The notes: a model not told the origin generated them from the letters alone. A DNA stretch of 64,000 nt from Patescibacteria group bacterium (GCA_042568575.1 JBHPIO010000002.1:32001-96000), one strand, 5' to 3'; counted from the first letter of the stretch, positions 4,922-42,154 are shown. Translations and numbers: made by a program.

Positions 4922-5269
4922 ATGCTTGTTACCAAAAAATTCAAATTCGATGCTGCTCACTTTCTCACTAACTATCATGGGAAGTGTGAAAAACTGCATG
5001 GCCATACGTATAAACTGCAGGTTACTGTTGAAGGTGATGTGAAAGAAGACGGCATGGTTATGGATTTTGTTGAACTTAAAAAGATCGTGAATGAGCGTGT
5101 TATCAGCAAGCTTGATCATAGTTCGCTTAACGATACTATTGAGAATCCTTCGGCGGAAAATATTGCTATTTGGATTTGGAATCGACTTAAAGATATTTCT
5201 GAGGCGAAACTGTATGAAGTGAAGGTTTGGGAAACTGCTACGTCTTTTGTTACTTATCGTGGAGAATAA
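4922..5269 (+). CDS. queD: 6-pyruvoyltetrahydropterin synthase / QueD family, CExxHGH type
   Basis: FDAAHFL, CEKLHGHTY, LDHSSLN and PSAENIA motifs; ATG at 4922 preferred to the TTG at 4889. Confidence 0.88.
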   Translation: MLVTKKFKFDAAHFLTNYHGKCEKLHGHTYKLQVTVEGDVKEDGMVMDFVELKKIVNERVISKLDHSSLNDTIENPSAENIAIWIWNRLKDISEAKLYEVKVWETATSFVTYRGE

Positions 5270-5815
5270 ATGAAGGAAATCGAACGCAAAATTTTTGATA
5301 TCAATCCGCAGGAAGTTGCTCAGAAACTTCTTGATCTTGGCGCGGAAAAAACTTTCTCTGGTCTTGTGAAAGTTCGTTATTTTGATACCGTTGATTCTAA
5401 AATCAGAAATCAGGGTGATCTTCTTCGTGTCCGCCAGTTTGAAGGTGCTCATGTGGAAGTCGTTTATAAGACCAATAAGCAAATCGAAGACGGATGCAAA
5501 ATTTATGATGAATACACTCTTAAAGGCGAGTCATTCGAGGACGCTACAAAGCTTTTTGAAAATCTTGGTTTTGCAGTTTGTTGTACATATGAAAAAACTC
5601 GAACCATTTTCAAACTAGAAAATGCAGAAGTTGTGATTGATGAGTATCCTAAAATGGATCCGTTTGTTGAAGTTGAAGCAGGTGATGCGAAAACGATCGA
5701 TGAAATCGTTAGTCGGCTTGGTTTAACAGAGAACGAAAGTTCATGTGAGACGATTAACGAACTTATTAAACGGAAATATCCTGATTTAGATCTTAATAAT
5801 CTGACGTTTGAGTAA
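5270..5815 (+). CDS. CYTH domain protein (class IV adenylate cyclase / triphosphate tunnel fold)
   Basis: N-terminal ExExK (EIERK), LLRVR, YEKTR and FVEVE. Confidence 0.85.
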   Translation: MKEIERKIFDINPQEVAQKLLDLGAEKTFSGLVKVRYFDTVDSKIRNQGDLLRVRQFEGAHVEVVYKTNKQIEDGCKIYDEYTLKGESFEDATKLFENLGFAVCCTYEKTRTIFKLENAEVVIDEYPKMDPFVEVEAGDAKTIDEIVSRLGLTENESSCETINELIKRKYPDLDLNNLTFE

Positions 5816-6298: not shown

Positions 6299-7144
6299 AT
6301 GAGAGATCCACAGAAACTTCACAACAAGGCGACACAGCTTCGCATAGACTGCTTGAAATGCATACATAAAGCGGCTTCTGGCCATACAGGAGGCAGCCTT
6401 TCTGCAATGGATATTTTGACTGCGCTTTATTACGGAGAGATTCATGGTAAGCCAATTATGAAATACGATCCGCATAAACCAGGATGGGAAGGTCAGGATT
6501 ATTTTATTATGTCGAAAGGACATGCTGCTCCTGCGCTTTACACAGTCCTTGCTGATCTTGGATTTTTTGATAAAAGCGAGTTGGATTATTTACGGCAGGT
6601 TAACGCTATGCTTCAGGGTCATCCTATTTTAAAAATTCCGGGAGTAACGATGACGACAGGTTCACTTGGACAGGGTTTTGCTGCTGCTCACGGTCTTGCG
6701 CTTGCTCTTAAAATGGATCGCGCGAAGAATCGGGTGTTTACCTTGCTTGGAGACGGAGAGCTTCAGGAGGGGATTGTATGGGAGACAGCGATGTCGGCTG
6801 CGCACTTTAAGTCAGACAATTTAATTGCATTTGTTGATAATAACGAACTTCAGATTGATGGTTTTACGAGAAGCATTATGAACGTTGAACCGATCACGGA
6901 TAAATTTGAGAGTTTTGGATGGAAGGTTATTCCTGTTAAAAACGGGCATGATTTTGAAGAGATTCTTGATGCGATTGATCGCGCACTTATAACTACCCGC
7001 AAACCTACTGCTATTGTTTGTAGCACTATTAAAGGAAAGGGTGTCACTTTTGCTGAAAGGAACGGAAGTTATCATGGTGTTGCTTTGAGTAAGGAAGAGA
7101 TGGAGGAAGCAATCCCGGCACTAGAAAGGCAAATTAAAGAATAA
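6299..7144 (+). CDS. transketolase N-terminal (TPP-binding) subunit
   Basis: SGHTGGSLS, SKGHAAP, TGSLGQG and GDGELQEG motifs. Confidence 0.95.
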   Translation: MRDPQKLHNKATQLRIDCLKCIHKAASGHTGGSLSAMDILTALYYGEIHGKPIMKYDPHKPGWEGQDYFIMSKGHAAPALYTVLADLGFFDKSELDYLRQVNAMLQGHPILKIPGVTMTTGSLGQGFAAAHGLALALKMDRAKNRVFTLLGDGELQEGIVWETAMSAAHFKSDNLIAFVDNNELQIDGFTRSIMNVEPITDKFESFGWKVIPVKNGHDFEEILDAIDRALITTRKPTAIVCSTIKGKGVTFAERNGSYHGVALSKEEMEEAIPALERQIKE

Positions 7145-7153
7145 GCCAATCTT

Positions 7154-7633
7154 ATGAAAGAATTTTTTACATTCATTTTCAGTTTCTGGTTGATGTCTCC
7201 GTTTACTATTTCCGGAGAGTCTATGGAGCCGATGCTTTCACACGATGATGTTATTATGATTGAAAATTACGCATACGTTGATGAAAGCCCTGAGCGTTAC
7301 GATGTGATTGTTTTTGAAGGAACTGACGAACCTGGCAAACATTTTGTGAAAAGAATTATTGGTTTGCCTGGTGAAACTATCACTATGAAGGAGGATGTTG
7401 TTTATATTGAAGAGGATGGAGAGCTCATCGAGCTTGACGAACCTTATATATGGCGCAATAAAAATGAAGTTTATTCATTACGGAAAATTGATGGCACATC
7501 TTATCAGGTTCCGGGTGGAAAATACTTTGTTTTAGGCGATAACAGGGATTCCAGCTATGACTCCAGGACGTGGAAAGACCCGTTTATTCCAAAAGAAAAT
7601 ATTGAAGGAAAGTACAGTTATACGCTATTCTAA
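7154..7633 (+). CDS. lepB: signal peptidase I
   Basis: SGESMEPML, FVKRIIGLPGE and YFVLGDNRDSSYDSR motifs. Confidence 0.93.
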   Translation: MKEFFTFIFSFWLMSPFTISGESMEPMLSHDDVIMIENYAYVDESPERYDVIVFEGTDEPGKHFVKRIIGLPGETITMKEDVVYIEEDGELIELDEPYIWRNKNEVYSLRKIDGTSYQVPGGKYFVLGDNRDSSYDSRTWKDPFIPKENIEGKYSYTLF

Positions 7634-7659: not shown

Positions 7660-8118
7660 ATGAAACTTACAAATACGCTTCTTATCGGGGTACTTTTGAT
7701 TGCGATGTTTGCTTTAACAGGTTGTTTTAGCTTTAATGATGGCACAAAAGAGCTGGTCCTAAATACGTCTGATGGCGTTCACACTTACACAGTTGAGATC
7801 GCTGATTCTACAGAAGAACGCAAACAAGGATTACAGGAAAGAGAAAAACTGGAAGAGAATACTGGTATGTTTTTTGTATACGAAGAGCCAAATCCAAAAA
7901 TGGCTTTCTGGATGCCTAATATGAAGATTTCTCTTGATATGATTTTCTTCGACAAAGACATGAAGGTTGTGGATTATTTTCAGGAAGTTCCTCCATGCGA
8001 ATCTGAATCATGTGCTCATTACACTCCGAAAGTTGTTTCTCAATATGTTCTTGAAGTAAATGCAGGAACTGTTGATGAAATCGGATTGGATATTGGTGAT
8101 GTTGGGGAGCTTAAGTAG
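7660..8118 (+). CDS. DUF192 family lipoprotein
   Basis: Lipobox LTGC; VEIADS...GL, GMFFVY, FWMPNM..SLDMIF and YVLEVNAG. Confidence 0.85.
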   Translation: MKLTNTLLIGVLLIAMFALTGCFSFNDGTKELVLNTSDGVHTYTVEIADSTEERKQGLQEREKLEENTGMFFVYEEPNPKMAFWMPNMKISLDMIFFDKDMKVVDYFQEVPPCESESCAHYTPKVVSQYVLEVNAGTVDEIGLDIGDVGELK

Positions 8119-8161
8119 AGGGTATCTTGCCTCTAGCCGAAAATAATGATAATAGTGAGTT

Positions 8162-9121
8162 ATGCATTTTGATACGAATGAAAAGATAGCGACCAGGGTT
8201 GCGTTTGGTGAAGCGATTGCCAAGTTTGGTGGTCGTCATAAAAACGTTGCAGTTTTAGATGCCGATCTTGCTGGATCTCTTAAGACTGGGAAATTTTCGA
8301 ATCTTTATCCGGATCGTCATTTTAATTTTGGAATCGCAGAAGCAAATATGGTGAATGCTGCTGCGGGTATGGCGCTGCGTGGAAAAGTTCCTTTTGCATG
8401 TTCGTTTGCGGTGTTTGTAACAGGACGTCCGTGGGAACATATTCGAAACAGCATTTGTTATCCAAATTTGAATGTGAAAATTGTTGGATCGCACGCGGGA
8501 GTTTTGACAGGTGAAGATGGTGCGACACATCAGGCGCTGGAAGATATAGCTATAATGAGAGCGATTCCAAATATGAAGGTTATTTGTCCTGCTGATGCGG
8601 TTGAAACATATCTGGCGATTGAAGAGATTATTAAAGATTTTGGGCCGACTTATATTAGACTCGGGCGTGCTGGCGTTCCAGTTATTTACGGAAAGGATCA
8701 TAAATTTAGAATTGGCTTTGGAGATATGCTGACTTTTGGTGAAGATATTGCGTTGATTGCTACTGGCACGATGGTTTCTATGTGTCTTGAAGCAGCAAAA
8801 ATGCTTGAACAACAGGATGGAATCCGAGTTATGGTGGTGAACATTTCAACAATCAAACCAATCGACGAAAAACTTGTAATAGATGCGGCAAGTAAAACCA
8901 AAATGGTTGTAACTGCGGAGGATCATAATATTACTGGAGGTCTTGGAAGTGCTGTTATGGAAGTCCTTTCAGAGCATCATCCAAAGAAAGTTCACAGAAT
9001 CGGAATGGATCGATTTGGAGAATCTGGAAAACCTTCCGACTTATACAAAAAATTCGGCCTGGATGCACAGGGCGTATATGAAAATGTTCTAGCGCAATGG
9101 AAAAATCAAATGAAAGACTAG
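8162..9121 (+). CDS. transketolase C-terminal (pyrimidine-binding) subunit
   Basis: GIAEANMV, GEDGATHQALED, TIKPID and EDHNITGGLGSAV motifs. Confidence 0.95.
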   Translation: MHFDTNEKIATRVAFGEAIAKFGGRHKNVAVLDADLAGSLKTGKFSNLYPDRHFNFGIAEANMVNAAAGMALRGKVPFACSFAVFVTGRPWEHIRNSICYPNLNVKIVGSHAGVLTGEDGATHQALEDIAIMRAIPNMKVICPADAVETYLAIEEIIKDFGPTYIRLGRAGVPVIYGKDHKFRIGFGDMLTFGEDIALIATGTMVSMCLEAAKMLEQQDGIRVMVVNISTIKPIDEKLVIDAASKTKMVVTAEDHNITGGLGSAVMEVLSEHHPKKVHRIGMDRFGESGKPSDLYKKFGLDAQGVYENVLAQWKNQMKD

Positions 9122-30904: not shown

Positions 30905-31945
30905 TTAAAGTTTTTCAGCTTCTACAATGCAGTAAAATGGTTCGATATCAAGTTTTTCACCGAACTGGATATATTCTGTCATTTTTAATCCACATTTTTT
31001 TAAAAATGATTCAGCTGCTGCTTTGGGATCATTTGACATATCTATACCAAATTTCGCAGGCTCTCCCATTTTTTCTATTATACTCATAAATCTTTTAGCT
31101 TCTTTTGAATATTCACCTTCTGCGAATGCTTTGGAATAAAAGTCTTGAGCGATGATACTCCCATCTACACATAAATCAGCCATTTCCCTAAGATTTTCTT
31201 TGACAATATCAGCTTCTAAATATAAAGAAACGCTTTGCCAAAGGAACAAAGTCTTTTTTGTTTTGTCAAAACCAGCTTCTACTAGTTTATCAACCCAGGA
31301 TTCGTTTGCGTAATCAACTGGGATATAGGTGATCCAATCGTGCTCAATTCTTGCTTTTTTCATTGTTTCAACTTTAACGTTTAGTGTGTTAGCCTGGTCG
31401 AGTTCAAAAACCTTCACTTTTTTTCCTTTTGTAAAGTGCAAAGCTATTAGATCAAAGCCAGCTCCAGGAAGGACAATCTGCTCCATTTCATCAACATATT
31501 TTTCCATTATCTTGTCAAACATGAGCACTCGAATACCAGCAGTGGAATCTCCGGTCTCTTTACCTCGTTCAACTAGTTTTCCAAGCAGAGCAGGGAAACC
31601 GGTTAACCTCACTGAAATGATAAGAGCTCCCAGAATCGACCACATACCAAAATGTGATTCACATGGAAACTTTTTTATAAACGCAACAGAAAGAGGATCC
31701 GGTCTGGTATTAAAATAATGCATCATCCACCTATATTGAAGCGCTTTAATTGCCGAGAAGGAGACACCCAGTTTCTTGCTTTTCCTCATTTCCTTGTAAA
31801 TTGCTACTATTATTCCAATAATAGCAAAAGGAATGAAGATTATTTGAATCGATATATAAAGGATGATTTGAAAAAGCTTTATTAAGAAACGTAATATTCT
31901 GGGAAGCTGTTTCTTTTTGTTACCTATCGTTAGATTCTCCTTCAT
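30905..31945 (-). CDS. SAM-dependent methyltransferase (leucine carboxyl methyltransferase-like)
   Basis: QIVLPGAGFDL, VFELDQ and LFLWQSVSLYL; lies just beyond the last att site. Confidence 0.85.
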   Translation of the reverse strand: MKENLTIGNKKKQLPRILRFLIKLFQIILYISIQIIFIPFAIIGIIVAIYKEMRKSKKLGVSFSAIKALQYRWMMHYFNTRPDPLSVAFIKKFPCESHFGMWSILGALIISVRLTGFPALLGKLVERGKETGDSTAGIRVLMFDKIMEKYVDEMEQIVLPGAGFDLIALHFTKGKKVKVFELDQANTLNVKVETMKKARIEHDWITYIPVDYANESWVDKLVEAGFDKTKKTLFLWQSVSLYLEADIVKENLREMADLCVDGSIIAQDFYSKAFAEGEYSKEAKRFMSIIEKMGEPAKFGIDMSNDPKAAAESFLKKCGLKMTEYIQFGEKLDIEPFYCIVEAEKL

Positions 31946-32020: not shown

Positions 32021-32138
32021 ACCTAACGTTCGCAAACTATACGAACTTTGACAGTGATATAATACGCCAAAGGCGAAACACTGGCAAAGTTGGGTGAAGC
32101 GAGTGAAAGGAGCGGAACCAAATAGTTTGCTGTTGTAC
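32021..32138 (-). repeat. attC-like site 1 (118 bp)
   Basis: Plus strand ACCTAAC...GTTGTAC; stems GCAAACTAT/ATAGTTTGC and AACTTTG/CAAAGTT; arm GGTGAAGC..GCGGAACC. Confidence 0.88.
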
Positions 32139-32151
32139 GATGTACCCGCGA

Positions 32152-32427
32152 TTATTTTTTTGAATTTAATAGCTTTTTAATTAGATATGTCCAAACAATA
32201 AAGATTATTGAACCATAAATAATTGAGTTTAATGCAATATATATTGGATTGATGCTTAAGTTGTTTTTTCCACATAAACACCAGTCTATATATAGAGGGA
32301 AGGGAAGGCCATATGCTTTCGTTGTACAGAATTCAAAAAAGTCATTTCTGAAATATAGGGTAGGTAAACTGACCAATAAACCCAAAAAAAGAAATAGAAT
32401 GATTTTAATAATGATATTTTTTTTCAA
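32152..32427 (-). CDS. cassette ORF: small membrane protein
   Basis: 91 aa, TTG start, YGLPFP; fills the space between sites 1 and 2. Confidence 0.65.
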   Translation of the reverse strand: MKKNIIIKIILFLFLGLLVSLPTLYFRNDFFEFCTTKAYGLPFPLYIDWCLCGKNNLSINPIYIALNSIIYGSIIFIVWTYLIKKLLNSKK

Positions 32428-32462
32428 AATTTATTATTTAGTGAATGATAAGTGGGTATGTC

Positions 32463-32565
32463 ACACAACGTTCGGCGCATATACAAAGTTTACATATAGC
32501 GTAGCGGAATGTAAATTTGGGTGGAGCGACCAAAGGGAGCGGAACTGAATATACGCCTGTTAGCT
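32463..32565 (-). repeat. attC-like site 2 (103 bp)
   Basis: ACACAAC...GTTAGCT; GGCGCATAT/ATATACGCC stem; nearly identical to site 9. Confidence 0.88.
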
Positions 32566-32588
32566 GAAGTAATTAAAACAAATTATTA

Positions 32589-32996
32589 TTACTTTGACCA
32601 ATCTTGTGTTTGCCGTTGGCGCATATCAATACTGATCTGTTTCGCTTCTTGTAAATAATGTGGTCTTATCCAGTCAGTATGTTCATCTTTAGAGATTTGA
32701 ACTATACTTCTACCCCCGTAACCAAAACTCTCATCAGGTCGACAGAAGCCAATTACAGTAACTTTATCCCCAAGTTGTATATCTCCCATAAAACATTTTC
32801 TTTCACCATGAGTTATTAATGTCGCGGGCATTCCAATATCAATATGAGGCATCATTTTACCTCTTAAACCAATAATTTTATCGCCTTTATATACAGCTAT
32901 ATCGTATCCATCGATTTGGTGACCTTCAATTCTACGCTCGCAAATACCTTGATCTTCTTGAGGAGTATCTAAATCTTCTCCTTTAAATGTTTCCAT
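32589..32996 (-). CDS. cassette ORF: hypothetical protein
   Basis: 135 aa; has its own consensus promoter. Confidence 0.7.
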   Translation of the reverse strand: METFKGEDLDTPQEDQGICERRIEGHQIDGYDIAVYKGDKIIGLRGKMMPHIDIGMPATLITHGERKCFMGDIQLGDKVTVIGFCRPDESFGYGGRSIVQISKDEHTDWIRPHYLQEAKQISIDMRQRQTQDWSK

Positions 32997-33024
32997 ATTT
33001 AAGGATTAAATTACAAAGGAATTA

Positions 33025-33053
33025 ATTATAAAATAAAATAACAAAAATGTCAA
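33025..33053 (-). promoter_or_regulatory. cassette-internal sigma70 promoter
   Basis: Minus strand TTGACA-17-TATAAT, perfect consensus. Confidence 0.8.
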
Positions 33054-33078
33054 TACCTGCTTAAACATTAATTATTTC

Positions 33079-33213
33079 AGCTAACGTTCGGCGTATATAC
33101 AAAGTTAGCCTGACGAGTGACGGTGATATAATATTCTAATCACCGGAACGAGGAAAGGCTAATTTGGGTGGAGCGACTAAAAAGGAGCGGAACTGAATAT
33201 ACGCCTGTTGTGC
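33079..33213 (-). repeat. attC-like site 3 (135 bp)
   Basis: AGCTAAC...GTTGTGC; GGCGTATAT/ATATACGCC stem. Confidence 0.88.
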
Positions 33214-33230
33214 GATGTGGCAAAATTTGC

Positions 33231-33464
33231 TTATTCCTGTTCCGCTTCCACTCTACGTATATGGACCATGGCTAAACCATTGATCGCCTCTTCAATTTTT
33301 GAAATCACCACCTTAGAACCTTCTTGCCTGTCAGGACCAACGAACAGCGGAAGTACTTCCCCTTGTTCGAATACGCCTTCACTAAATCCTATCGTAACTT
33401 CGCCTTTTTTATCTAATTCATCAAGCTCTTGGCTTTCAAGCCTTACTAGTGAAGTTTTTCCCAT
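33231..33464 (-). CDS. cassette ORF: small acidic hypothetical protein
   Basis: 77 aa; promoter TTGTGC-17-TATAAT whose -35 overlaps the site 4 core. Confidence 0.65.
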   Translation of the reverse strand: MGKTSLVRLESQELDELDKKGEVTIGFSEGVFEQGEVLPLFVGPDRQEGSKVVISKIEEAINGLAMVHIRRVEAEQE

Positions 33465-33517
33465 GTTGCAATTTTGTTAATAAAACAATAGTACATTATA
33501 GCAAATTTTGACATTTT

Positions 33518-33665
33518 GCACAACGTCCGCGGCTTGTACGAAGTTGCCGACGAGCGAGATGGTATAATTTTAAACCATCAAAGCGAGGAAGGCAATTTGG
33601 GTGAAGGCTTTCGGCTGTGCGAAGCCAGTCCGAAAAAGCCTGAACCGGACAAGCCGCTGTTGTAC
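33518..33665 (-). repeat. attC-like site 4 (148 bp)
   Basis: GCACAAC...GTTGTAC; GCGGCTTGT/ACAAGCCGC stem; long second arm shared with site 11. Confidence 0.88.
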
Positions 33666-33681
33666 GATGTAGCGAAAATTA

Positions 33682-33945
33682 TTAAGAAGTTTTGCTTGGT
33701 TTCATCCATTTAATATAACCTCTTAAATACAGAAAAAATAAAACTATGGAAGTTACACCATTTGCTATACTTCCTATTTGAAAGCTAAATATAAAACCGA
33801 CTATTCCTGATATCATTCCTACGACGAAACCAATTTTTTTCTTGTCTCCAAGAAGAAAAATTCCTGCAAAAACCGTTAACGTGACTATCCAATCTACGCC
33901 ATAATACTGGAAAGCATAATGTTTTATTTGTTCCAGAATTCCCAT
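33682..33945 (-). CDS. cassette ORF: 3-TM PnuC/SemiSWEET-like small membrane protein
   Basis: 87 aa; YYGVDW...KKKIGF...RGYIKW. Confidence 0.65.
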   Translation of the reverse strand: MGILEQIKHYAFQYYGVDWIVTLTVFAGIFLLGDKKKIGFVVGMISGIVGFIFSFQIGSIANGVTSIVLFFLYLRGYIKWMKPSKTS

Positions 33946-33984
33946 AGTTTTATTTTATATGAATAATGAAATTTTCGCTATTTC

Positions 33985-34102
33985 GTACAACGTCTGCAAA
34001 CTATACGAACTTTGACAGTGATATAATACGCCAAAGGCGGATCACTGGCAAAGTTGGGTGAAGCGAGTGAAAGGAGCGAAACCGAATAGTTTGCTGTTAT
34101 AT
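33985..34102 (-). repeat. attC-like site 5 (118 bp)
   Basis: GTACAAC...GTTATAT; nearly identical to site 1. Confidence 0.88.
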
Positions 34103-34125
34103 GATGTCGTAAATTCCCGACTCTA

Positions 34126-34563
34126 TTAATCTGATAATGTTTTAGAAAATTTTGTAGAAGCTTCTTGATAACCGAGACCTTTGTAGAAGTCGTGCGCCTC
34201 TGTTCGATCTTTTCTACTTGTGACTTCTATTTTAGTAGAGCCGACTTTTGCTGCCTCTTCTTCGAGCTTTTTTACTAATGTTTTCCCAATACCTTGTCTT
34301 CTGTATTTTTCTTTGACTATTAAAGTAATTATTCGAGCAGTTTTGCCAGTTTCGTATAAAAAGTTGGTGATTTGTAATTGAGCAACTCCTGCAATTTCTC
34401 CTTTGGTTTCAGCAATAATTAGAATTACTTCTGGATTGTCGGTTAGTGCCTCAATTTTGTTACGAGCAAAAGTCGGCGTGTTAGGATATCCAAATTCAAT
34501 TAATAATTCTGCTACGCCTTCTGCATCTTTAATTGTTGCTTCTCTGTAATTGATATCTTCCAT
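34126..34563 (-). CDS. cassette ORF: GNAT acetyltransferase
   Basis: LIVKEKYRRQGIGKTL and AHDFYKGLGY. Confidence 0.9.
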   Translation of the reverse strand: MEDINYREATIKDAEGVAELLIEFGYPNTPTFARNKIEALTDNPEVILIIAETKGEIAGVAQLQITNFLYETGKTARIITLIVKEKYRRQGIGKTLVKKLEEEAAKVGSTKIEVTSRKDRTEAHDFYKGLGYQEASTKFSKTLSD

Positions 34564-34583
34564 AAGATCGAATTTACGATTTC

Positions 34584-34699
34584 ATATAACGTCTAGCACT
34601 ATGCGATGTTTGGCGATGGTAAAATATCACGAAGTGATACCATCGCCAAATATAGGTGTAGCGACTGAAAGGAGCGGAACCGAATAGTGCTTGTTGTGC
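34584..34699 (-). repeat. attC-like site 6 (116 bp)
   Basis: ATATAAC...GTTGTGC; AGCACTAT/ATAGTGCT and TTTGGCGATGGTA/TACCATCGCCAAA stems. Confidence 0.88.
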
Positions 34700-34716
34700 G
34701 ATGTGTTGTGCCCGAC

Positions 34717-35157
34717 TTACTTAATCTTCTTTATGTAATGTACGATTACGTCGTCTTTTTTGAAACCTAAATTTTTGTGAAATTTCTGGCTATCAACGTT
34801 CCTTAACTCTGCGTCTGAGCCGAGCTCTTTGCATCCCTGTTTTTTGGCCCACTTTTCACCTTGTTCCACAAGCTCTTTGGCAACTCCTTGTTTTCTGTAT
34901 TTGGGCTTTACATAAATGCCTTCAACATAGCCGACTGGACTAGATGATGAACCTTGGACATAATCGTTGCGAAGCGAAAGATTGATGAAGCCCAAATACT
35001 CACCCTTTTCATTTTGGGCCAAAAAGTTTGTGTATCTATCTGACTTTGAAAGTGCCTGAAATTCTTTTTTGAGTGTTTTTTTAGCGTGTGGCCAAAGAGC
35101 GAGGCCCATTGATAGCCACTCATTAAAGTTGTCTTCAGAAATTTCACAAAAATTCAT
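34717..35157 (-). CDS. cassette ORF: aminoglycoside 6'-N-acetyltransferase AAC(6')-I-like GNAT
   Basis: ALWP, SLRNDYVQGSSSSPVGYVEGIYV, GCKELGSDA and SQKFHKNLGF; ATG at 35157. Confidence 0.82.
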   Translation of the reverse strand: MNFCEISEDNFNEWLSMGLALWPHAKKTLKKEFQALSKSDRYTNFLAQNEKGEYLGFINLSLRNDYVQGSSSSPVGYVEGIYVKPKYRKQGVAKELVEQGEKWAKKQGCKELGSDAELRNVDSQKFHKNLGFKKDDVIVHYIKKIK

Positions 35158-35186
35158 AGTATTGATGATTAAGGGCACAACATTTC

Positions 35187-35304
35187 GTACAACGTTCGCA
35201 AACTATACGAACTTGCGACAGGTGTAGAATAGCCGAAGGCGGACACCTGAGCAAGTTGGGTGAAGCGAGTGAAAGGAGCGGAACCGAATAGTTTGCTGTT
35301 AGGC
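35187..35304 (-). repeat. attC-like site 7 (118 bp)
   Basis: GTACAAC...GTTAGGC; same family as sites 1 and 5. Confidence 0.88.
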
Positions 35305-35312
35305 GATGTTAA

Positions 35313-35543
35313 TTATTTTTTCCATTTTGCATATGCCCTAGCATTCAATGCTATAAGTATTATATTTAAAATTACACCAGGCCATATATGACCCATATAA
35401 TTTACAGCTATCCATGCGATGTTACCAACAGTGTATATAATAAATGAATATCTTTTTTTGCTACCAACAAGGAATAGAAAAATAAGTGAACCTGCCATCC
35501 CAATCCAATCTAGTCCGTAATAATTTCCCAATATTTCATTCAT
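35313..35543 (-). CDS. cassette ORF: 3-TM PnuC/SemiSWEET-like small membrane protein (76 aa)
   Basis: Likely start MNEILGNYYGLDW; the longer track ORF runs through att site 8. Similar to 33682..33945. Confidence 0.7.
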   Translation of the reverse strand: MNEILGNYYGLDWIGMAGSLIFLFLVGSKKRYSFIIYTVGNIAWIAVNYMGHIWPGVILNIILIALNARAYAKWKK

Positions 35544-35561
35544 ATAAAAATAATTAATGTT

Positions 35562-35689
35562 GCCTAACGGCCATGAATAACTGAAGTTTGGTGGCGGTAT
35601 AATTTGGAGCGGAGCGACATACCACCGCCAAATTTGGGAGAACGAACGAAGCAAAGCGGAGTGAGTGAACCAGTTATTCATTGTTATGT
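35562..35689 (-). repeat. attC-like site 8 (128 bp, divergent)
   Basis: GCCTAAC...GTTATGT; ATGAATAACTG/CAGTTATTCAT stem. Confidence 0.82.
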
Positions 35690-35704
35690 GATGTGACAAT
35701 AGGG

Positions 35705-36343
35705 TCACTTTGTTAAATGCTCAATCGCTTTTTTCAGTTGTCCGCCAAAATCGTTGTCCATGTTGAGAGCTTTTAACTTGTACTTCTTTGCTTCTTTGTC
35801 AAAAAATTGTCCATAGTAGTTGATCATTTCCGCGATCTTGTTGAGAGTTTCTTTTTCTTTTGTTTTACGAAGAATCCAGTCGTTTGGAGTTGAACTTTTC
35901 TTAAAGTCACGAACCATTTTTTCAACATCAGACTTAAAGAGAAAAAGAACGCAGAAATGTTTACGTCCGTATTTTTTAATTAGCCGAGCTGCAAGTTGTG
36001 GCGTTACATGGTAGCCCTCGACAATATAATCATTGCCATCAGTAATTTCGCAGACGGAAAACATATCTATTGCGTCATAGCTAGACTTGGCCTGCTTAAT
36101 GTAATTATTAGCAATCTGCTTTGGAGTATTGAGTGAATATGTTTCGTCATTAGTTTTGCCCTTTTGAGCATTATGTGGATAGAGTTTATCCATTTCCGCT
36201 TTAGAAGCATATTTTGAAACATATTCACGCGCTACAACTTGCAGCGTATCAGAAGCAACCCACTGAATGCCGAGCTTCTTGGACAATTTTTTGGCAAGTG
36301 TGGTTTTACCACATTTTGGCGGACCGCCGATTAAATAGATCAT
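35705..36343 (-). CDS. cassette ORF: P-loop kinase (2-phosphoglycerate kinase / AAA_33-like)
   Basis: LIGGPPKCGKTT Walker A; YIVEG. Confidence 0.8.
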   Translation of the reverse strand: MIYLIGGPPKCGKTTLAKKLSKKLGIQWVASDTLQVVAREYVSKYASKAEMDKLYPHNAQKGKTNDETYSLNTPKQIANNYIKQAKSSYDAIDMFSVCEITDGNDYIVEGYHVTPQLAARLIKKYGRKHFCVLFLFKSDVEKMVRDFKKSSTPNDWILRKTKEKETLNKIAEMINYYGQFFDKEAKKYKLKALNMDNDFGGQLKKAIEHLTK

Positions 36344-36376
36344 AGTTTTATTTTAGCAAGACCCTATTGTTATTTC

Positions 36377-36477
36377 ATATAACGTTCGGCGCATATACAA
36401 AGTTTACATGCAGCGTAGCGGAATGTAAATTTGGGTGGAGCGACGAAGGAGCGGAACTGAATATACGCCTGTTATAT
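36377..36477 (-). repeat. attC-like site 9 (101 bp)
   Basis: ATATAAC...GTTATAT; nearly identical to site 2. Confidence 0.88.
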
Positions 36478-36493
36478 GAAGCACATTTTTTCG

Positions 36494-36549
36494 TTTGGGG
36501 GCGGCGCAGAGGGGATGGGGGTGAATGCGCCGCCCCCAAACACCTTTTT
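36494..36549 (+). terminator. strong GC hairpin / plus-strand terminator inside the inverted cassette
   Basis: 15-bp stem TTTGGGGGCGGCGCA/TGCGCCGCCCCCAAA followed by CACCTTTTT. Confidence 0.6.
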
Positions 36550-36590
36550 CTTGTTTTACCTATCTGTGATAAGATTGAAAAGCGTTTTGC

Positions 36591-36619
36591 TTGACAAAAC
36601 AATTCTATTTATTTATAAT
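36591..36619 (+). promoter_or_regulatory. cassette-internal sigma70 promoter
   Basis: TTGACA-17-TATAAT, perfect consensus. Confidence 0.8.
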
Positions 36620-36650
36620 TCGATACCATTTACTTTTTAACCGTTTTATA

Positions 36651-37121
36651 ATGGAAACACAACAAGGAAATTCTGCCGAACAATTAGAAGGAAAATCCAC
36701 TCAGGAGCTCTTGGATGCACTATGCGAGGTTCAAAAAATCGAACCTATATTACTAGATCGAGGTCGTGCTTTTTTGAGAGATGTTTTGAGTAAAGAGGAA
36801 AATTTCCCTACAGATAGATTAAATGACTGTCGCGTAAGAGTCGAAGTAAATGACGGTGGTGGTCTCGTTGTTAGAGTGCCGGTTAATCGATTTGAGGTTG
36901 ATGGTAGTACTTTAGATGCTCATCCACTTAAACTTGAAATGAAGGATCAATGGAGTAATTTGCCCGGAGTTGCTCGTGTGGAGACTGATGGTAGTATGAA
37001 TAGTGGAATAATGAATTTAGATGTTTATCTTCAATCCGATCAATTACCTGAGCAAGATTCATCGCAAGCAGTTGAAGAAGTGCAGGAGGTTGTAGGAAAA
37101 GGTCTTAGTCAAAGTGTATAG
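36651..37121 (+). CDS. cassette ORF in inverted orientation: acidic hypothetical protein
   Basis: METQQGNS... (156 aa) downstream of the promoter; the track's TTG start is the -35 box. Confidence 0.72.
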   Translation: METQQGNSAEQLEGKSTQELLDALCEVQKIEPILLDRGRAFLRDVLSKEENFPTDRLNDCRVRVEVNDGGGLVVRVPVNRFEVDGSTLDAHPLKLEMKDQWSNLPGVARVETDGSMNSGIMNLDVYLQSDQLPEQDSSQAVEEVQEVVGKGLSQSV

Positions 37122-37142
37122 TTTCAATGGTTTAATAATAGA

Positions 37143-37175
37143 GATCGGGATTATTTTAATAACTCCGATCTTTTT
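37143..37175 (+). terminator. intrinsic terminator of the inverted cassette gene
   Basis: GATCGGGATTATT/AATAACTCCGATC followed by a T-run. Confidence 0.55.
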
Positions 37176-37216
37176 ATTATGCCCCCCTCTATCAATAAAG
37201 GGAAAAAATGTATTGC

Positions 37217-37339
37217 ATATAACGTTTCGGCATATACGATGTTTGCCAGTGGTATAATACCGCGAAGCGGTTACCACTGGCAAATATGAGCGAAACGACG
37301 ACTGAAAGGAGGAGTGTAGCCGTATATGCCGTGTTAAGT
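37217..37339 (-). repeat. attC-like site 10 (123 bp)
   Basis: ATATAAC...GTTAAGT; CGGCATATACG/CGTATATGCCG and TTTGCCAGTGGTA/TACCACTGGCAAA stems. Confidence 0.88.
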
Positions 37340-37349
37340 GATGTAAATT

Positions 37350-37973
37350 TTATTTTTTCTTTGCTAATACCCACCAATGATATTCGTTATCGCCTGGCTG
37401 TCCTTCATATTCGCTTTCTGTGATTTCAAAACCAGCCTGAGCAATCATTGCCTTATATTTTTCAGGTTCATAATTGCTCCATGCCATTGGTGCTCCGACA
37501 AAATCTTTTTCTATACTTACTTCACTACTTGTACCCAATGTTACTAAAATAACCCCATTATTCTCTAACAAATTATGCATTTTATCAAACAAGGCTTGAT
37601 GTTCTTCGCGCGGAATATGAAAAATAGAGTAAAAGGCGATGATTGCGTGGAAACGCTTGCCGCCAAAATCCGTCTTTGAAAAATCACCTTCAATAAAAGT
37701 TGCATCTGGTACATTTTTCTTCGCTTCGACAATATGATTGGAGGCAAAATCTATGCCGGTTACTTCAAAGCCCTTTTCAACAAGGTACTTGTCGAAAGGG
37801 ATTCCAATACCACAACCCAAATCAAGGACTTTGGCGGCCTTTGGCAAGAGAACTGCCAGGCGATTCAGATATTTCTTTTCCATTTCATTAGGGTCTGAAC
37901 TTACGCGGAAATGTCCAGCGTAGTCGCCTTGTTCATAACCTTCTTTAACGATTTTACGAATATCATTGGTCAT
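37350..37973 (-). CDS. cassette ORF: class I SAM-dependent methyltransferase
   Basis: VLDLGCGIG, VTGIDFA and FYSIFHIP. Confidence 0.9.
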   Translation of the reverse strand: MTNDIRKIVKEGYEQGDYAGHFRVSSDPNEMEKKYLNRLAVLLPKAAKVLDLGCGIGIPFDKYLVEKGFEVTGIDFASNHIVEAKKNVPDATFIEGDFSKTDFGGKRFHAIIAFYSIFHIPREEHQALFDKMHNLLENNGVILVTLGTSSEVSIEKDFVGAPMAWSNYEPEKYKAMIAQAGFEITESEYEGQPGDNEYHWWVLAKKK

Positions 37974-37992
37974 AAAAAATAAAATTTATTTC

Positions 37993-38136
37993 ACTTAACG
38001 GTTGCAAACTATACGAACTTTTTCGCGATGGTATAATAGCGCTTTAGCGCAACCATTGCAAAAAAAGTTGGGTGAGGGCTTTTGGCTGTGCGAAGCCAGC
38101 CGAAAAAAGGCCGAACCGTATAGTTTGCTGTTGTGC
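37993..38136 (-). repeat. attC-like site 11 (144 bp)
   Basis: ACTTAAC...GTTGTGC; GCAAACTATACG/CGTATAGTTTGC stem. Confidence 0.88.
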
Positions 38137-38207
38137 GCTGTTGCGAAATCAAAATTTACCCGAAGGGTAAATAGAAATTTTGGCGACTAAATTATTTTGT
38201 CTAATTC

Positions 38208-38438
38208 TTATTTTTTCGAGGCCATAAGTTCAGTAACTGTTAGTCTTGCTCTAACTAAATTCCGAATTGTTTCTTCTTCAGGCGTTAGTGTTCCTAAGTC
38301 AGCTTTATGGGCGAGAATACTTTGTATGGCACCGGGGAGTTGATCTTCTCTGCCATCAGCAGTTTCTCTGGCTTTTCCATAACCATCTTTGTACCATCCA
38401 AAATTGCCAGATTCGGTTGGACCACCTACAGTAGCCAT
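38208..38438 (-). CDS. first (attI-proximal) cassette ORF: small hypothetical protein
   Basis: 76 aa; candidate promoter TTGCAT-16-TAAAAT (38494-38467). Confidence 0.6.
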   Translation of the reverse strand: MATVGGPTESGNFGWYKDGYGKARETADGREDQLPGAIQSILAHKADLGTLTPEEETIRNLVRARLTVTELMASKK

Positions 38439-38535
38439 ATAATGTTTGATTATGAATTAAGACTATATTTTAGCAGAAGAATATTAATATGCAATATTTG
38501 TCGCCAAAATTTCTGTTCTTTTTTTTCGCAATGGC

Positions 38536-38560
38536 GTACAACTCAGCACTAAGCGTAGTT
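38536..38560 (-). other. attI-like site
   Basis: Core GTACAAC (GTTGTAC on minus) whose left flank is complementary to the right flank of site 11; no branched hairpin follows; about 90 bp from the integrase start. Confidence 0.7.
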
Positions 38561-38634
38561 TACTATAGTTTAGAAGAATTTTAGAGTTTTTTTACAATGT
38601 TTTGGTACGTTCTGTGCGTATTTTAAGTTTTTTT

Positions 38635-39456
38635 ATGAGCCTTAAAAGCCAGTTACTGCTTAGGATGGAGCGCGAGATGATTATTAAGAATTATAGCCCC
38701 AGGACACAGAAAACCTATATGTACTGTATTGAGAAGTATTTGGAGTTTGATTTTGGGGCTGTGCGCAGGTGTGGTTTGGATAAAATTCGGGAATTTCTTG
38801 TGTTGAAGCAGGAAAGTGGCGTTGGTCCTGTTATGAGGAATTTGTATCTTTGTGCCATTAAGTTTTTCTATCGAAGCGCACTGAATCGCCGTAAAACAAT
38901 ACCTATTCCGTATGCTAAACGACCAAAAAGCACGCCTATAACGCTAACGCGCGTAGAGGTACTTCAGATGCTGTCCTACATTAACAATTACAAGCATAAA
39001 TTGATCGTGGCATTGGCTTATGGAGCGGGTTTGAGACTCAGTGAGGTTACAAGTCTGAAAGTTTATGACATTCATTTACTTGATAAGACAATTCTTGTTA
39101 GAAGAGGGAAGGGCGCGAAACGGCGATATACGATTATTCCGGATAAACTATGGTGGAAACTCCGTCTTTATGTGAAAAACAGGGATGCGCACAAGTATGT
39201 TTTTGAGAGTAATAGGGGAGGAAAGTTACATTCACGCACTGTTCAAAAGATTTTCAAAAAAGCTCTCAAGAAAGCCGGCATTGAAAAACAAGCCACGTTT
39301 CATTCGCTCAGGCATAGTTTTGCTACGCATTTGCTCGAAAATGGAACAAATCTGCGATATGTGCAGGCGTTGCTTGGGCATTCAAGTATTAGAACAACTC
39401 AAATTTATACTCATGTTGATGATTGCGCAATTAAGACTGTCAAAAGCCCACTTTAA
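38635..39456 (+). CDS. tyrosine recombinase / integrase (273 aa) with an N-terminal SAM-like domain, lacking the IntI-specific insertion
   Basis: NYSPRTQKTY; catalytic R (GLRLSE), K (GKGAK), HSLRH, LGH and Y (TQIY) are all present. Confidence 0.93.
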   Translation: MSLKSQLLLRMEREMIIKNYSPRTQKTYMYCIEKYLEFDFGAVRRCGLDKIREFLVLKQESGVGPVMRNLYLCAIKFFYRSALNRRKTIPIPYAKRPKSTPITLTRVEVLQMLSYINNYKHKLIVALAYGAGLRLSEVTSLKVYDIHLLDKTILVRRGKGAKRRYTIIPDKLWWKLRLYVKNRDAHKYVFESNRGGKLHSRTVQKIFKKALKKAGIEKQATFHSLRHSFATHLLENGTNLRYVQALLGHSSIRTTQIYTHVDDCAIKTVKSPL

Positions 39457-39521: not shown

Positions 39522-40016
39522 ATGACAAGACGTCGCCCATCTGAGGGAGAAAAAGACCTGATTCAACGAGGATTAGTTGTATTAAAAGAAATCTATGAGC
39601 ATCCTGAAAGTGCTAATGTCCATAGCGCGAGAGGTAGAATACTATCAAGAGTATTACTTGTAATGAATGGTCAGACAGTAGGTGATTTATACAGATTGAT
39701 GGTTGTTGCAAGTTATCAGCCTACTGATGCGGACGCAATTTTAACAGCTTTAAATAGCAGTACTGGATTGCGCGAATTTGAACAATATTTGTTGGATTGC
39801 GATTCTGACGATCTGCGAGCGACTATTTTAAAAACATTTCCAACTCAAGAATCAAAGCAAGCGGCATTGGAATATTTAACTGCTGATGAAGATGGCAGAA
39901 TTAGATTTCACCACAAAGGATACCTTGTTACAGAAGAACAACTTGCATACTTAAACGAACTCTTGAGTTCAAGAGATTTACAAGAAGTACTTGAAATTCT
40001 ATACAAACAAATTTAA
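39522..40016 (+). CDS. hypothetical protein
   Basis: 164-aa ORF; TTGACA-16-TATAAA upstream. Confidence 0.65.
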   Translation: MTRRRPSEGEKDLIQRGLVVLKEIYEHPESANVHSARGRILSRVLLVMNGQTVGDLYRLMVVASYQPTDADAILTALNSSTGLREFEQYLLDCDSDDLRATILKTFPTQESKQAALEYLTADEDGRIRFHHKGYLVTEEQLAYLNELLSSRDLQEVLEILYKQI

Positions 40017-40636
40017 GTCTCCTCCATACTAGCCTTAATTCTCATCACACCAGTGATTGCGCTTCGTTCTGCTTCGCTAAGTTTCATCGAAATGAACTTA
40101 ACAGTCTCCTGGAGGTTTGGTAGGAGCATGTGTTCGAGAGCGTTTACACGACGACGAGTCTTTTCAGTTTCTTCAGCGAGACGTTCTGCCTGACGTTCGA
40201 TTTCAGCAAGTTGAATCAAGAGTGGAAGCACTTCCTGGAAGGCCTCAAGAGCCATATCAAGCTCTCCACTTGTTTGAAGGTATCCATAGTTCAAAATGTT
40301 TCCTTTCTGCTTTAACGTGAAGTTTGGGATGCGTACGCTCATCACGTTTTTTGTCTCAACTTCCAGCGATACTTCAGCGGAAGGGTAGAGGAGTGCATTC
40401 TCAAGAACTTCTGGATACATCATTGCTGATGCTTGCATAAAGTTCTTGAATGCTCCCTGCAATTTCTCTTCAACTTTCTTTCGAAGATCTCGTGCCTCAC
40501 GGATGATTTCCATAAATTTCTGCATCAATCCGTCCTGTTTGTCTCGTAGCAGCTTGTGTCCCCTTTGAGCAGTTTTAATCTGCTTCTTAAGGTTCAGAAG
40601 CTCCATTCGAGTTGGATTGACATTTAGTTTTGCCAT
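40013..40636 (-). CDS. ntpD: A/V-type ATPase subunit D
   Basis: NPTRMEL, RGHKLLRDK and TRRRVNALE. Confidence 0.95.
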   Translation of the reverse strand: MAKLNVNPTRMELLNLKKQIKTAQRGHKLLRDKQDGLMQKFMEIIREARDLRKKVEEKLQGAFKNFMQASAMMYPEVLENALLYPSAEVSLEVETKNVMSVRIPNFTLKQKGNILNYGYLQTSGELDMALEAFQEVLPLLIQLAEIERQAERLAEETEKTRRRVNALEHMLLPNLQETVKFISMKLSEAERSAITGVMRIKASMEET

Positions 40637-40657
40637 ATCTTAGGGTCGTTTAAATTA

Positions 40658-42154
40658 TTATGATGAGAATTCAGCTTTTGCTTCTTCTTCAGTTGCGCTC
40701 TGTTCTTCTTCAGGCACCTCTTCCTTTGCAGGCATTTCTTCTTTTGCATCTTCTCCCATGTATTTAGCAATGTGTTCTTCTTTCACACGCTTTAATTCGT
40801 TTTTTGGAAGGAGCTTTAGAAGTTCCCATCCCATTGTAAGAGATTTGATAATGTCGCGATCTTCGTTTTCACTTTGACGAACATATTTATCTTCAAATTC
40901 ATTTGCGAATTTCAAGAATGCAAGATCTGCATCACTTAGAGCCGCTTCACCAAGAATTACCGCAAGCTCACGAACTTCTTTTCCTCTAGCGTAAGCTGCA
41001 AAGAGCTGGTTCATCACACCTGAATGGTCTTCACGAGTTTTTCCAGGTCCGATACCTTTATCTTTCAAACGAGAAAGTGAAGGAAGTACGTTGATGTTTG
41101 GGTAAATACCTTGAGAGTGAAGGTCACGCGCTAGCACGATCTGTCCCTCTGTAATATATCCTGTAAGATCAGGAATTGGATGAGTGATATCGTCTTCCGG
41201 CATAGTTAGAATAGGAATCTGTGTGATTGAACCTTCTTTACCTTTTACACGTCCAGCTCGTTCGTATAGAGTCGCTAGATCCGTATATAGGTAACCTGGA
41301 TAACCACGTCGTCCTGGAACCTCTTTACGAGCTGCAGATACTTCACGTAGCGCTTCACAATAGTTTGTAAGGTCAGTAAGGATTACAAGTACGTGCATTC
41401 CTTTTTCAAAAGCAAGATACTCAGCTGTTGTAAGTGCCATACGTGGAGTCGCAATTCTTTCTACTACTGGATCGTCCGCTGTATTGATGTAAAGAACAGA
41501 TCGTTCGATAGCACCTGTCTTTTTGAATTCGTTTGTGAAGTATTCCGCTTCTTCAAATGTCACACCCATCGCTGCAAATACTACCGCGAAGTTTTCATCA
41601 TTACCGCCACCTTCTTTAATATTCCCTTCATCATCTACTTTCACTACTTTCGCCTGACGAGCAATTTGTGCAGCTAAACGTGCATGTGGAAGACCAGCTC
41701 CAGAGAAAATAGGAAGCTTTTGTCCACGTACAAGTGTGTTCATGGCATCAATTGTAGAGATTCCTGTTTGATAGAAATCGTTCGGATAATCACGCGCATT
41801 TGGATTTAGCGGGTTTCCGTTAATGTCGATTTTCTTTTCAGGAATGATTTCAGCTCCACCATCAATCGGGCGGCCCCGTCCATCAAAGATGCGTCCGAGC
41901 ATGTCCTTAGACACTCCAAGCTGAAGACTCTTTCCTAGGAATCTAGCCTTAGATCCAGCTGCTCCAAGTCCCTGTGAACTTTCGAACATCTGAGCGATGG
42001 CCATTCCTTCTCTAGCTTCAAGTACTTTTCCAAGACGTACGTCTCCACTTGCAGTTGTAATCTCTACAAGCTCTTCATACTTGATGTCCTCAACGCCTTC
42101 GATCATTACGAGCGGTCCGGCGATGGACTTTATTGTTTTATATTCTTTTTGCAT
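40658..42154 (-). CDS. ntpB: A/V-type ATPase subunit B
   Basis: [23 protein letters not shown] and [11 protein letters not shown]. Confidence 0.97.

Follow-up and report, generated by a model that had tools for sequence, protein, structure and literature searches.

The 64,000-nucleotide stretch of DNA analysed here (the window; GCA_042568575.1, contig JBHPIO010000002.1, positions 32001-96000) comes from a Patescibacteria group bacterium and carries on its plus strand, between window positions 32025 and 38132, eleven related sequence elements, to the right of which lies a gene for a tyrosine recombinase. Patescibacteria, also known as the candidate phyla radiation (CPR), are ultra-small bacteria; the genome in question is 1.2 Mb in length, has a G+C content of 38% and contains a bacterial 16S rRNA gene. 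We consider it likely that the eleven elements are attC-type sites of a sedentary integron-like platform, which has an attI-like junction, its own dedicated tyrosine recombinase and about 12 cassettes that are read away from the recombinase gene. Each element extends from AAC to GTT over 93-140 nt, and together they bear out the span of 32021-38136 that a preliminary description of this DNA had assigned to a set of att sites.

Architecture and covariation of the sites

The sites share a core of fixed layout. An R box made up of the terminal AAC and GTT (7-10 bp when the cassette's own ends are included) is followed by an invariant G·T pair, a 3-nt pyrimidine bulge which is found on the 5' arm only, and a 9-bp L stem which is free in sequence and has no bulges. 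Distal to this core is a three-way junction that is conserved in shape as well as in sequence: an unpaired TAAT and a mini-hairpin, C-GNA-G, are found in its arm 1, and tandem G·A positions in its arm 2. Minimum-energy folding with DNA parameters yielded the basal stem and two arms in eight of the eleven window sites. The five basal stems quoted in the preliminary description are all present, and a sixth, CGGCATATA, was found in the site that begins at 37221; the loops quoted there are likewise all present (GCCGAAGGC, CCGCGAAGCGG, TCACGAAGTGA, GCGTAGC, which occurs twice, and GCGGAGC).

A first, loose pattern search for the frame of the site performed no better than chance, with 76 matches against 81.8 expected. 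Homologous sites were found by a structural scan upstream of the recombinase gene in four related loci (L002, L003, L005 and L006), and a plain MAFFT alignment was made of 18 sites, six of them among the window's eleven and 12 from relatives. For this alignment RNAalifold returned the three-way junction, with compensatory changes (changes on both sides) in 22 of 28 pairs. A covariance model built from the same alignment gave 39 matches in 15 sources, all of them on the recombinase-coding strand in the loci oriented by that gene. Among 108 distinct sites from 31 sources, fitted to this model, 96.8% of cells pair and 25 of the 28 pairs have changed on both sides; slid controls gave at most 48.1% of cells paired, and of 500 shuffles none reached four of the five measures and one reached the fifth.

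The basal stem was also assessed without an alignment. Among the 91 complete sites it pairs, free of gaps, at nine of nine positions in 77, with 49 distinct 9-mers represented, and at no fewer than eight of nine in 86, separated by 4 nt from AAC and by 1 nt from GTT. The stem thus covaries between copies, as had been proposed from the window alone, and the three helices covary in both the 18-site and the 108-site alignments. This indicates that intrastrand pairing is under selection.

Conservation of sequence is concentrated in the core and in the arms. AAC and GTT are near-invariant across the 108 sites, and their flanks are R/Y-rich (RYRY, where R is a purine and Y a pyrimidine). Beside the presumed crossover, G4 (107/107) faces T287 (107/108) and is followed by three partnerless, pyrimidine-rich bases; the spacer between the R and L boxes reads AAC-G-[T/G]-Y-Y on its 5' side against a single T on its 3' side in 86 of 91 sites. 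Within the arms the A20-T160 pair is invariant, and G162 and G163 are conserved along with C270 and C271. The apex of arm 1 reads C (88/98), G (93/98), any base, A (91/98) and G (87/96). The consensus of arm 2 is G-GGY-G-a-A-GC-GA...GA-GC-g-g-A-RCC, with G165 in 103 of 103 sites and A265 in 96 of 96, a variable helix between the two GA steps, and purine opposite purine at fixed positions; the pattern GGT-GRA-GC-GA...GA-GC-GGA-ACY, earlier read from the window, is therefore that of the family.

Two kinds of variant were observed in relatives. Three sites in L005 (4946-5135, 6984-7173 and 7778-7968) are about 190 nt in length and have a long AT-rich insert in place of the usual arm 2 region. In L008 (4411-4488 and 5323-5396) and L009 (8143-8219) the sites are unbranched hairpins of 74-78 nt, in which the core AAC-GTTT...T-GTT is kept; the genomes from which these two loci come need genetic code 25.

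Strand preference of the fold

Seen from the cassettes, the + strand is the bottom one, and under DNA parameters its fold is the more stable in all eleven window sites and in 31 of 33 sites overall (mean difference 2.7 kcal/mol; purine fraction 0.575), which agrees with the strand chosen in the preliminary description. The strand advantage reported for classical attC sites in a part of PMC5027507, 2.12 kcal/mol, is similar. The cells of the 108-site alignment that do not hold standard pairs are mostly G·T (155, against 92 of all other kinds), and G·U makes up pair 22-158, the basal one of arm 1, in 77 of the 108 sites.

Mini-hairpins of the form N-C-GN(N)A-G-N' are found on the + strand of 93 of the 108 sites, on the - strand of six, and in 248 of 1080 shuffles. 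Eight of the eleven window sites carry one, and the 108 sites together hold 31 exact copies of GCGAAGC and 30 of CCGAAGG, so that the recurrent C-GNA-G loops first seen in the window are a strand-specific trait of the family. According to passages of PMC13037366, d(GCGAAGC) melts at 76.5 °C, its stability is missed by conventional thermodynamic models, and mini-hairpins of this kind have been reported at single-strand initiation signals and in the hairpin promoters of phage N4. As this stability lies outside nearest-neighbour models, our computed energies probably understate the difference between strands.

Classical L-box bulges, that is extrahelical bases in the L'' box, are absent from the 91 complete sites, in which the sole conserved bulge is that of the R-L spacer, on the 5' arm. 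Their absence fits a recombinase without the IntI insertion that binds them (see below). Folding of the + (bottom) strand is favoured, without being proven, by the G·T wobbles, the GNA loops and the purine-purine positions of arm 2, which on the other strand become A·C, TNC and C·T, respectively. It had been suggested that strand choice is encoded by purine loops rather than by extrahelical bases. In so far as the purine motifs are strand-specific and the classical bulges are missing, the suggestion stands; given the invariant G·T and the 3-nt bulge next to the crossover, it was overstated. Nor is strand choice by purines and loops new in principle: portions of PMC5027507 describe long variable terminal structures (VTSs) of chromosomal attC sites that can form complex branched structures, a bottom-strand VTS that is typically 5'-GAA-3', and a purine skew that adds to strand selectivity.

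Cassette boundaries and genomic setting

We compared the seven bases to the right of the GTT of each site with the seven to the left of the AAC of the next. On average 5.44 of the seven are complementary, and in 38 of 63 pairs at least six are; the corresponding values were 3.4 and 2 of 93 for the two flanks of the same site, and 3.2 and 1 of 41 for an offset control. Such complementarity is expected if the two ends of each cassette rebuild one R box upon excision. Duplications in relatives have the same boundaries: in L003 a 482-bp unit is present twice at 100% identity (5164-5645 and 8063-8544), beginning at the AAC of a site and ending 7 nt into the next, and in L005 similar whole-cassette copies at 4946-5243, 6984-7281 and 7775-8076 begin at a site's AAC. 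When genomes are compared, the nucleotide similarity takes in the sites and the recombinase gene, leaves out the cassette ORFs (open reading frames), and starts at the AAC of the attI-like junction. Together with the linkage to the recombinase gene, these boundaries substantiate the earlier designation of the elements as att sites, of the attC type.

The recombinase gene abuts an operon for subunits D and A/B of a V/A-type ATP synthase (40013-42154 in the window) not only here but also in L002, L004, L005 and L006, so that the platform occupies a fixed chromosomal place. Identity across these five related genomes is 91-97% for the ATP synthase proteins and 63-83% for the recombinases, and the cassette contents are unrelated.

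The recombinase

The gene as listed encodes 284 aa (38602-39456, +), and alignment with relatives suggests that its real start is an ATG about 11 codons inside this ORF. None of the catalytic residues (R, K, H-x-x-R, H and Y) is missing, and they are invariant in 10 relatives; the nearest relatives belong to metagenome-assembled genomes of Patescibacteria, Peribacteria and Peregrinibacteria. Aligned with VchIntIA (2a3v), the protein matches in two pieces and skips chain residues 200-240, and neither it nor the 10 relatives contain the IntI-specific insertion. The insertion is likewise missing from every recombinase read from the loci examined; wherever both motifs were found in these proteins, or in two recombinases of the window's own genome, the distance between KGxKxR and HxxRH is 65-78 residues. 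In the part of PMC9668308 that deals with it (citing Messier and Roy 2001), the additional domain around patch III is described as a defining trait of IntI and as necessary for integron-mediated recombination.

Family models place the protein in the same way. It scores 195 bits, in two stretches, against the integron integrase model TIGR02249, which is under the cut-off of 265, and just passes the XerA model (220.8 bits against a cut-off of 220). Its scores against XerC (172 bits) and XerD (165 bits) are both below its TIGR02249 score; the order is reversed for the genome's housekeeping candidate, a separate gene which scores 250 bits against XerD and 236 against XerC. Judged by its sequence, then, the array-linked recombinase is not a classical IntI, and, since a better XerD/XerC-like gene is present elsewhere in the genome, it is a dedicated enzyme.

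Distribution across the order

By the covariance model, sites occur in 99 of 151 sampled genomes of the order, representing 16 of 19 families, and the recombinase in 89: both are present in 76, sites only in 23, the recombinase only in 13 and neither in 39, in a sample that includes many fragmented assemblies as well as related, non-independent genomes. Among the matches listed (150 of 465), 28 genomes of relatives have a site and the recombinase gene on one contig, and in all 28 the sites are 5' of the gene and on the same strand. A twelfth candidate site, on contig 1 of the window's own genome, was discarded as a chance match without the fold. The literature that we searched, supplementary files aside, yielded no paper on integron-like platforms in Patescibacteria or the CPR, nor on attC sites with a three-way junction.

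Proposed mechanism and alternative explanations

By analogy with integrons, and with Xer recombination on the folded DNA of phage CTX, we propose, in preference to a cruciform or a folded RNA, that the + (bottom) strand of each site folds when it becomes single-stranded. With two recombinase monomers seated on the R and L boxes, a single strand would then be exchanged at AA|C. In this scheme the three-way junction would fill the role of the classical VTS by stabilizing the bottom-strand fold, and the conserved bases of the arms would probably act as a structural landmark for the second monomer, in place of extrahelical bases which the recombinase has no domain to read.

Several of our observations weigh against this proposal, and it needs to be read with them in mind. 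For three of the eleven window sites (those at 32467, 35566 and 36381) the minimum-energy fold is not the junction. The large covariation counts come from the 108-site alignment, which was fitted to the model and consists of mutually related sites, and covariation as such cannot separate DNA from RNA. The energy gap between the strands, at 2.7 kcal/mol, is modest and is reversed in two of 33 sites; in nearest-neighbour calculations the + and - strands differ little for the basal stem and arm 1 (mean pair probability 0.83 vs 0.84 and 0.81 vs 0.73, respectively), and arm 2 is thermodynamically weak on both (0.25 vs 0.19), so that the three-way junction must rely on protein or on G·A pairs of non-canonical type. 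The unbranched hairpins of L008 and L009 adjoin relatives of the recombinase with 44% identity; since distant relatives keep the same core in unbranched sites, the junction is not required family-wide and is a lineage-specific elaboration. Finally, no cassette is common to two genomes at the nucleotide level, and movement of cassettes between genomes is thus not something that we observed.

The conserved core raises the possibility that strand choice is set mainly beside the crossover, the recombinase reading the G·T wobble and the 3-nt pyrimidine bulge while the junction only tunes folding or serves another purpose. We regard this as a serious contender, if a somewhat doubtful one. The near-invariance of the spacer and of G4 and T287 speaks for it, the same core is retained in the unbranched sites of distant relatives, and, in the sections of PMC5027507 concerned with binding, the unpaired features nearest the integrase dominate in classical attC. 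Yet the recombinase has no equivalent of the insertion by which IntI reads extrahelical bases, the bulge is on the 5' arm, opposite to the arm that bears the classical extrahelical bases, and the sequence conservation of the distal arms far exceeds the needs of folding. Another explanation is that arm 1 is conserved chiefly as a duplex promoter, with TTGCCA-17-TATTAT on the minus strand driving the next cassette and the hairpin a by-product or second use. The 5' strand of arm 1 holds T-A-t-A-A-T, four positions of which are kept in at least 93 of 96 sites, and on the minus strand this becomes TATTAT, preceded at 16-18 nt by TTGCCA or TTTGCA and directed towards the next cassette. A promoter scan gave minus-strand matches inside five of the eleven window sites; minus-strand -35/-10 scores of at least 9/12 were obtained for 48 of 108 sites against 35 of 540 shuffles, and our initial idea that only the + strand looks promoter-like was dropped when these pairs were found. 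Cassette genes begin 23-87 nt past the sites, and a passage of PMC11014356 reports a transcription start inside attC for one gene-less Vibrio cassette. However, the perfect TATAAT is on the other strand (+ strand in 67 of 108 sites, - strand in one), where 54 of 108 also have TG in front (TGnTATAAT; in the window, for example, at 32052-32060, 37247-37255 and 38026-38034). At the -35 positions conservation reaches only about one half, and the covariation there is that of paired stem bases; two window sites (2 and 9) lack the motif entirely, and a promoter would leave the C-GNA-G in its spacer, arm 2 and the basal stem unexplained. Conservation of arm 1 chiefly as a promoter seems rather unlikely to us. 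The TATAAT itself may serve as a promoter for the cassette, as a promoter or priming signal on single-stranded DNA, or as a bulge for protein contact. In an improbable variant of our proposal the junction has two uses: in the folded bottom strand the upstream part of the extended -10 (TGnTATAAT) would be duplex and TAAT unpaired, next to the ultra-stable C-GNA-G mini-hairpin, so that the junction might act as a single-stranded DNA promoter or priming signal comparable to the promoters of phage N4 and the single-strand initiation (ssi) sites of plasmids. The RNA polymerase or primase of the host could then serve to mark the bottom strand or to hold it, or could begin the complementary strand on an excised single-stranded cassette, and would thereby share in strand choice with a recombinase unable to read extrahelical bases.

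Two further explanations do without a folded strand of DNA. Ordinary duplex recombination sites, or protein-binding palindromes, for an Xer-type enzyme would suit a recombinase that lies just over the XerA cut-off and an attI-like partner that resembles a duplex site; this is very unlikely, as three separate helices covary with free sequence, neither the G·T pairs nor the conserved placing of purine opposite purine has any meaning in a duplex, eleven sites lie in one array, and a separate, better XerD-like gene is present. The fold might instead act in RNA, either in a + strand antisense transcript or in the cassette mRNA, as an element for processing, stability or protein binding. RNA, too, typically shows wobbles compatible with G·U and tandem G·A positions, and TGnTATAAT on the + strand could be counted in support. 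We nevertheless judge this highly unlikely. Cassette mRNA corresponds to the minus strand, on which the wobbles are A·C and the loops TNC; a + strand RNA begun at the internal TATAAT would miss the 5' halves of the basal stem and of arm 1, yet these covary; an Rfam scan of the whole window matched no family at the gathering score; and the complementary cassette ends and duplicated cassette units are signatures of DNA recombination.

Organization of the array

We number the sites from left to right, all on the + strand. Site 1 (32025-32134) has the basal stem GCAAACTAT, the apex C-AAA-G and a model score of 113.3 bits. Site 2 (32467-32561) has a short arm 1 with GCGTAGC and a C·A mismatch in its basal stem, and site 9 (36381-36473) is a near-copy of it. 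Arm 1 is long in site 3 (33083-33209); arm 2 is extended and capped by GCGAAGC in sites 4 (33522-33661) and 11 (37997-38132), and deviant in site 8 (35566-35685), which has GCGGAGC. Site 5 (33989-34098) scores 116.8 bits. The apices of sites 6 (34588-34695), 7 (35191-35300) and 10 (37221-37335) are ACGAAGT, CCGAAGG and GCGAAGC, the last of these sites also containing TGGTATAAT.

The cassette ORFs between the sites (32152-38438) are on the minus strand, with the exception of one at 36591-37121. Each minus-strand ORF is followed by a site, and the recombinase gene, to the right of the array on the + strand, is divergent from the co-oriented cassettes. Between site 11 and this gene there is one further small minus-strand ORF and the attI-like junction (38534-38580, +), which consists of GTACAAC (approximately 38534-38541) and then a stretch kept in six genomes. 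Family matches were found for two GNAT acetyltransferase cassettes (34126-34563 and 34717-35178), a P-loop kinase-like protein (35705-36343) and an S-adenosylmethionine (SAM) methyltransferase (37350-37973), all on the minus strand, as is a PnuC-like cassette (33682-33945) whose weak match is under the cut-off; most other cassette ORFs have no family match.

The cassette between sites 9 and 10 (36476-37200) is the sole one coded on the + strand. A sigma-70 promoter that matches the consensus at 12 of 12 positions (36591-36619) is ahead of its ORF (36591-37121), and a long GC-rich palindrome (approximately 36497-36541) lies in AT-rich surroundings. To the left of site 1, the last of the array as read from the recombinase gene, a 346-aa leucine carboxyl methyltransferase-like ORF (30905-31945) is not followed by a site and may be either the last cassette or chromosomal flank. 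Beyond the recombinase gene, a 164-aa ORF (39522-40016) was considered as an accessory factor and rejected, as it has no family match and is not kept beside the recombinase in relatives.

Implications and comparison with known systems

A complete platform without an IntI domain and without L-box bulges is thus found in about two-thirds of the sampled genomes of one order of Patescibacteria, and the place of the bulges is taken by a sequence-conserved, Y-shaped fold rich in DNA-specific stabilizing motifs. If the recombinase does work on this fold, it would represent a second solution to strand-specific, structure-guided recombination, and would offer a tractable 110-nt substrate on which to study how Xer-like enzymes recognize branched single-stranded DNA. 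Integron finders that require the IntI domain would presumably not call these platforms complete integrons.

The closest parallel is with integrons, such as the Vibrio cholerae repeats and their IntI. Common to both are an array of cassettes read away from a neighbouring tyrosine recombinase gene, sites with an AAC...GTT inverted core (RYYYAAC ... GTTRRRY around an imperfect palindrome), complementary cassette ends, an L box which is free in sequence but paired, and a crossover at the conserved triplet, although its position here is predicted by analogy. A purine-rich and more stable bottom strand, loops of the GAA type and a branched distal part are also shared, to go by what PMC5027507 says of them in part. 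In contrast to IntI, the array-linked recombinase lacks the insertion, and the sites lack bulged bases in the L box. The R-L spacer consists of 4 nt facing 1 nt, whereas classical attC has about 5-6 unpaired bases on each arm; and, unlike in classical attC, TATAAT, C-GNA-G and tandem G·A recur as conserved sequence in the distal junction across an order, the host being a CPR bacterium.

In the CTX system, a single phage genome is integrated at dif by the housekeeping XerC/XerD pair. What it shares with the platform described here is an Xer-type enzyme without the IntI insertion, acting on a site formed by one folded DNA strand, which in our case is a prediction; it differs in that a single dedicated recombinase gene here stands beside an array of many cassettes. 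XerC and XerD are, as stated in a section of PMC5027507, the only other tyrosine recombinases known to act on both single- and double-stranded substrates. Archaeal XerA and bacterial XerC-XerD are also the best matches of our protein by family model and by solved structure, with similar length and domain layout. A replicon has a single 28-bp dif, whereas eleven structured sites bound cassettes here (no search for dif was made), and the housekeeping role fits the other, better XerD/XerC-like gene of this genome rather than the array-linked one. The mini-hairpins, lastly, have the motif, the C:G closing pair and the sheared G·A of d(GCGNAGC) and d(GCGNNAGC) DNA; here the predicted hairpin sits inside a putative recombination site.

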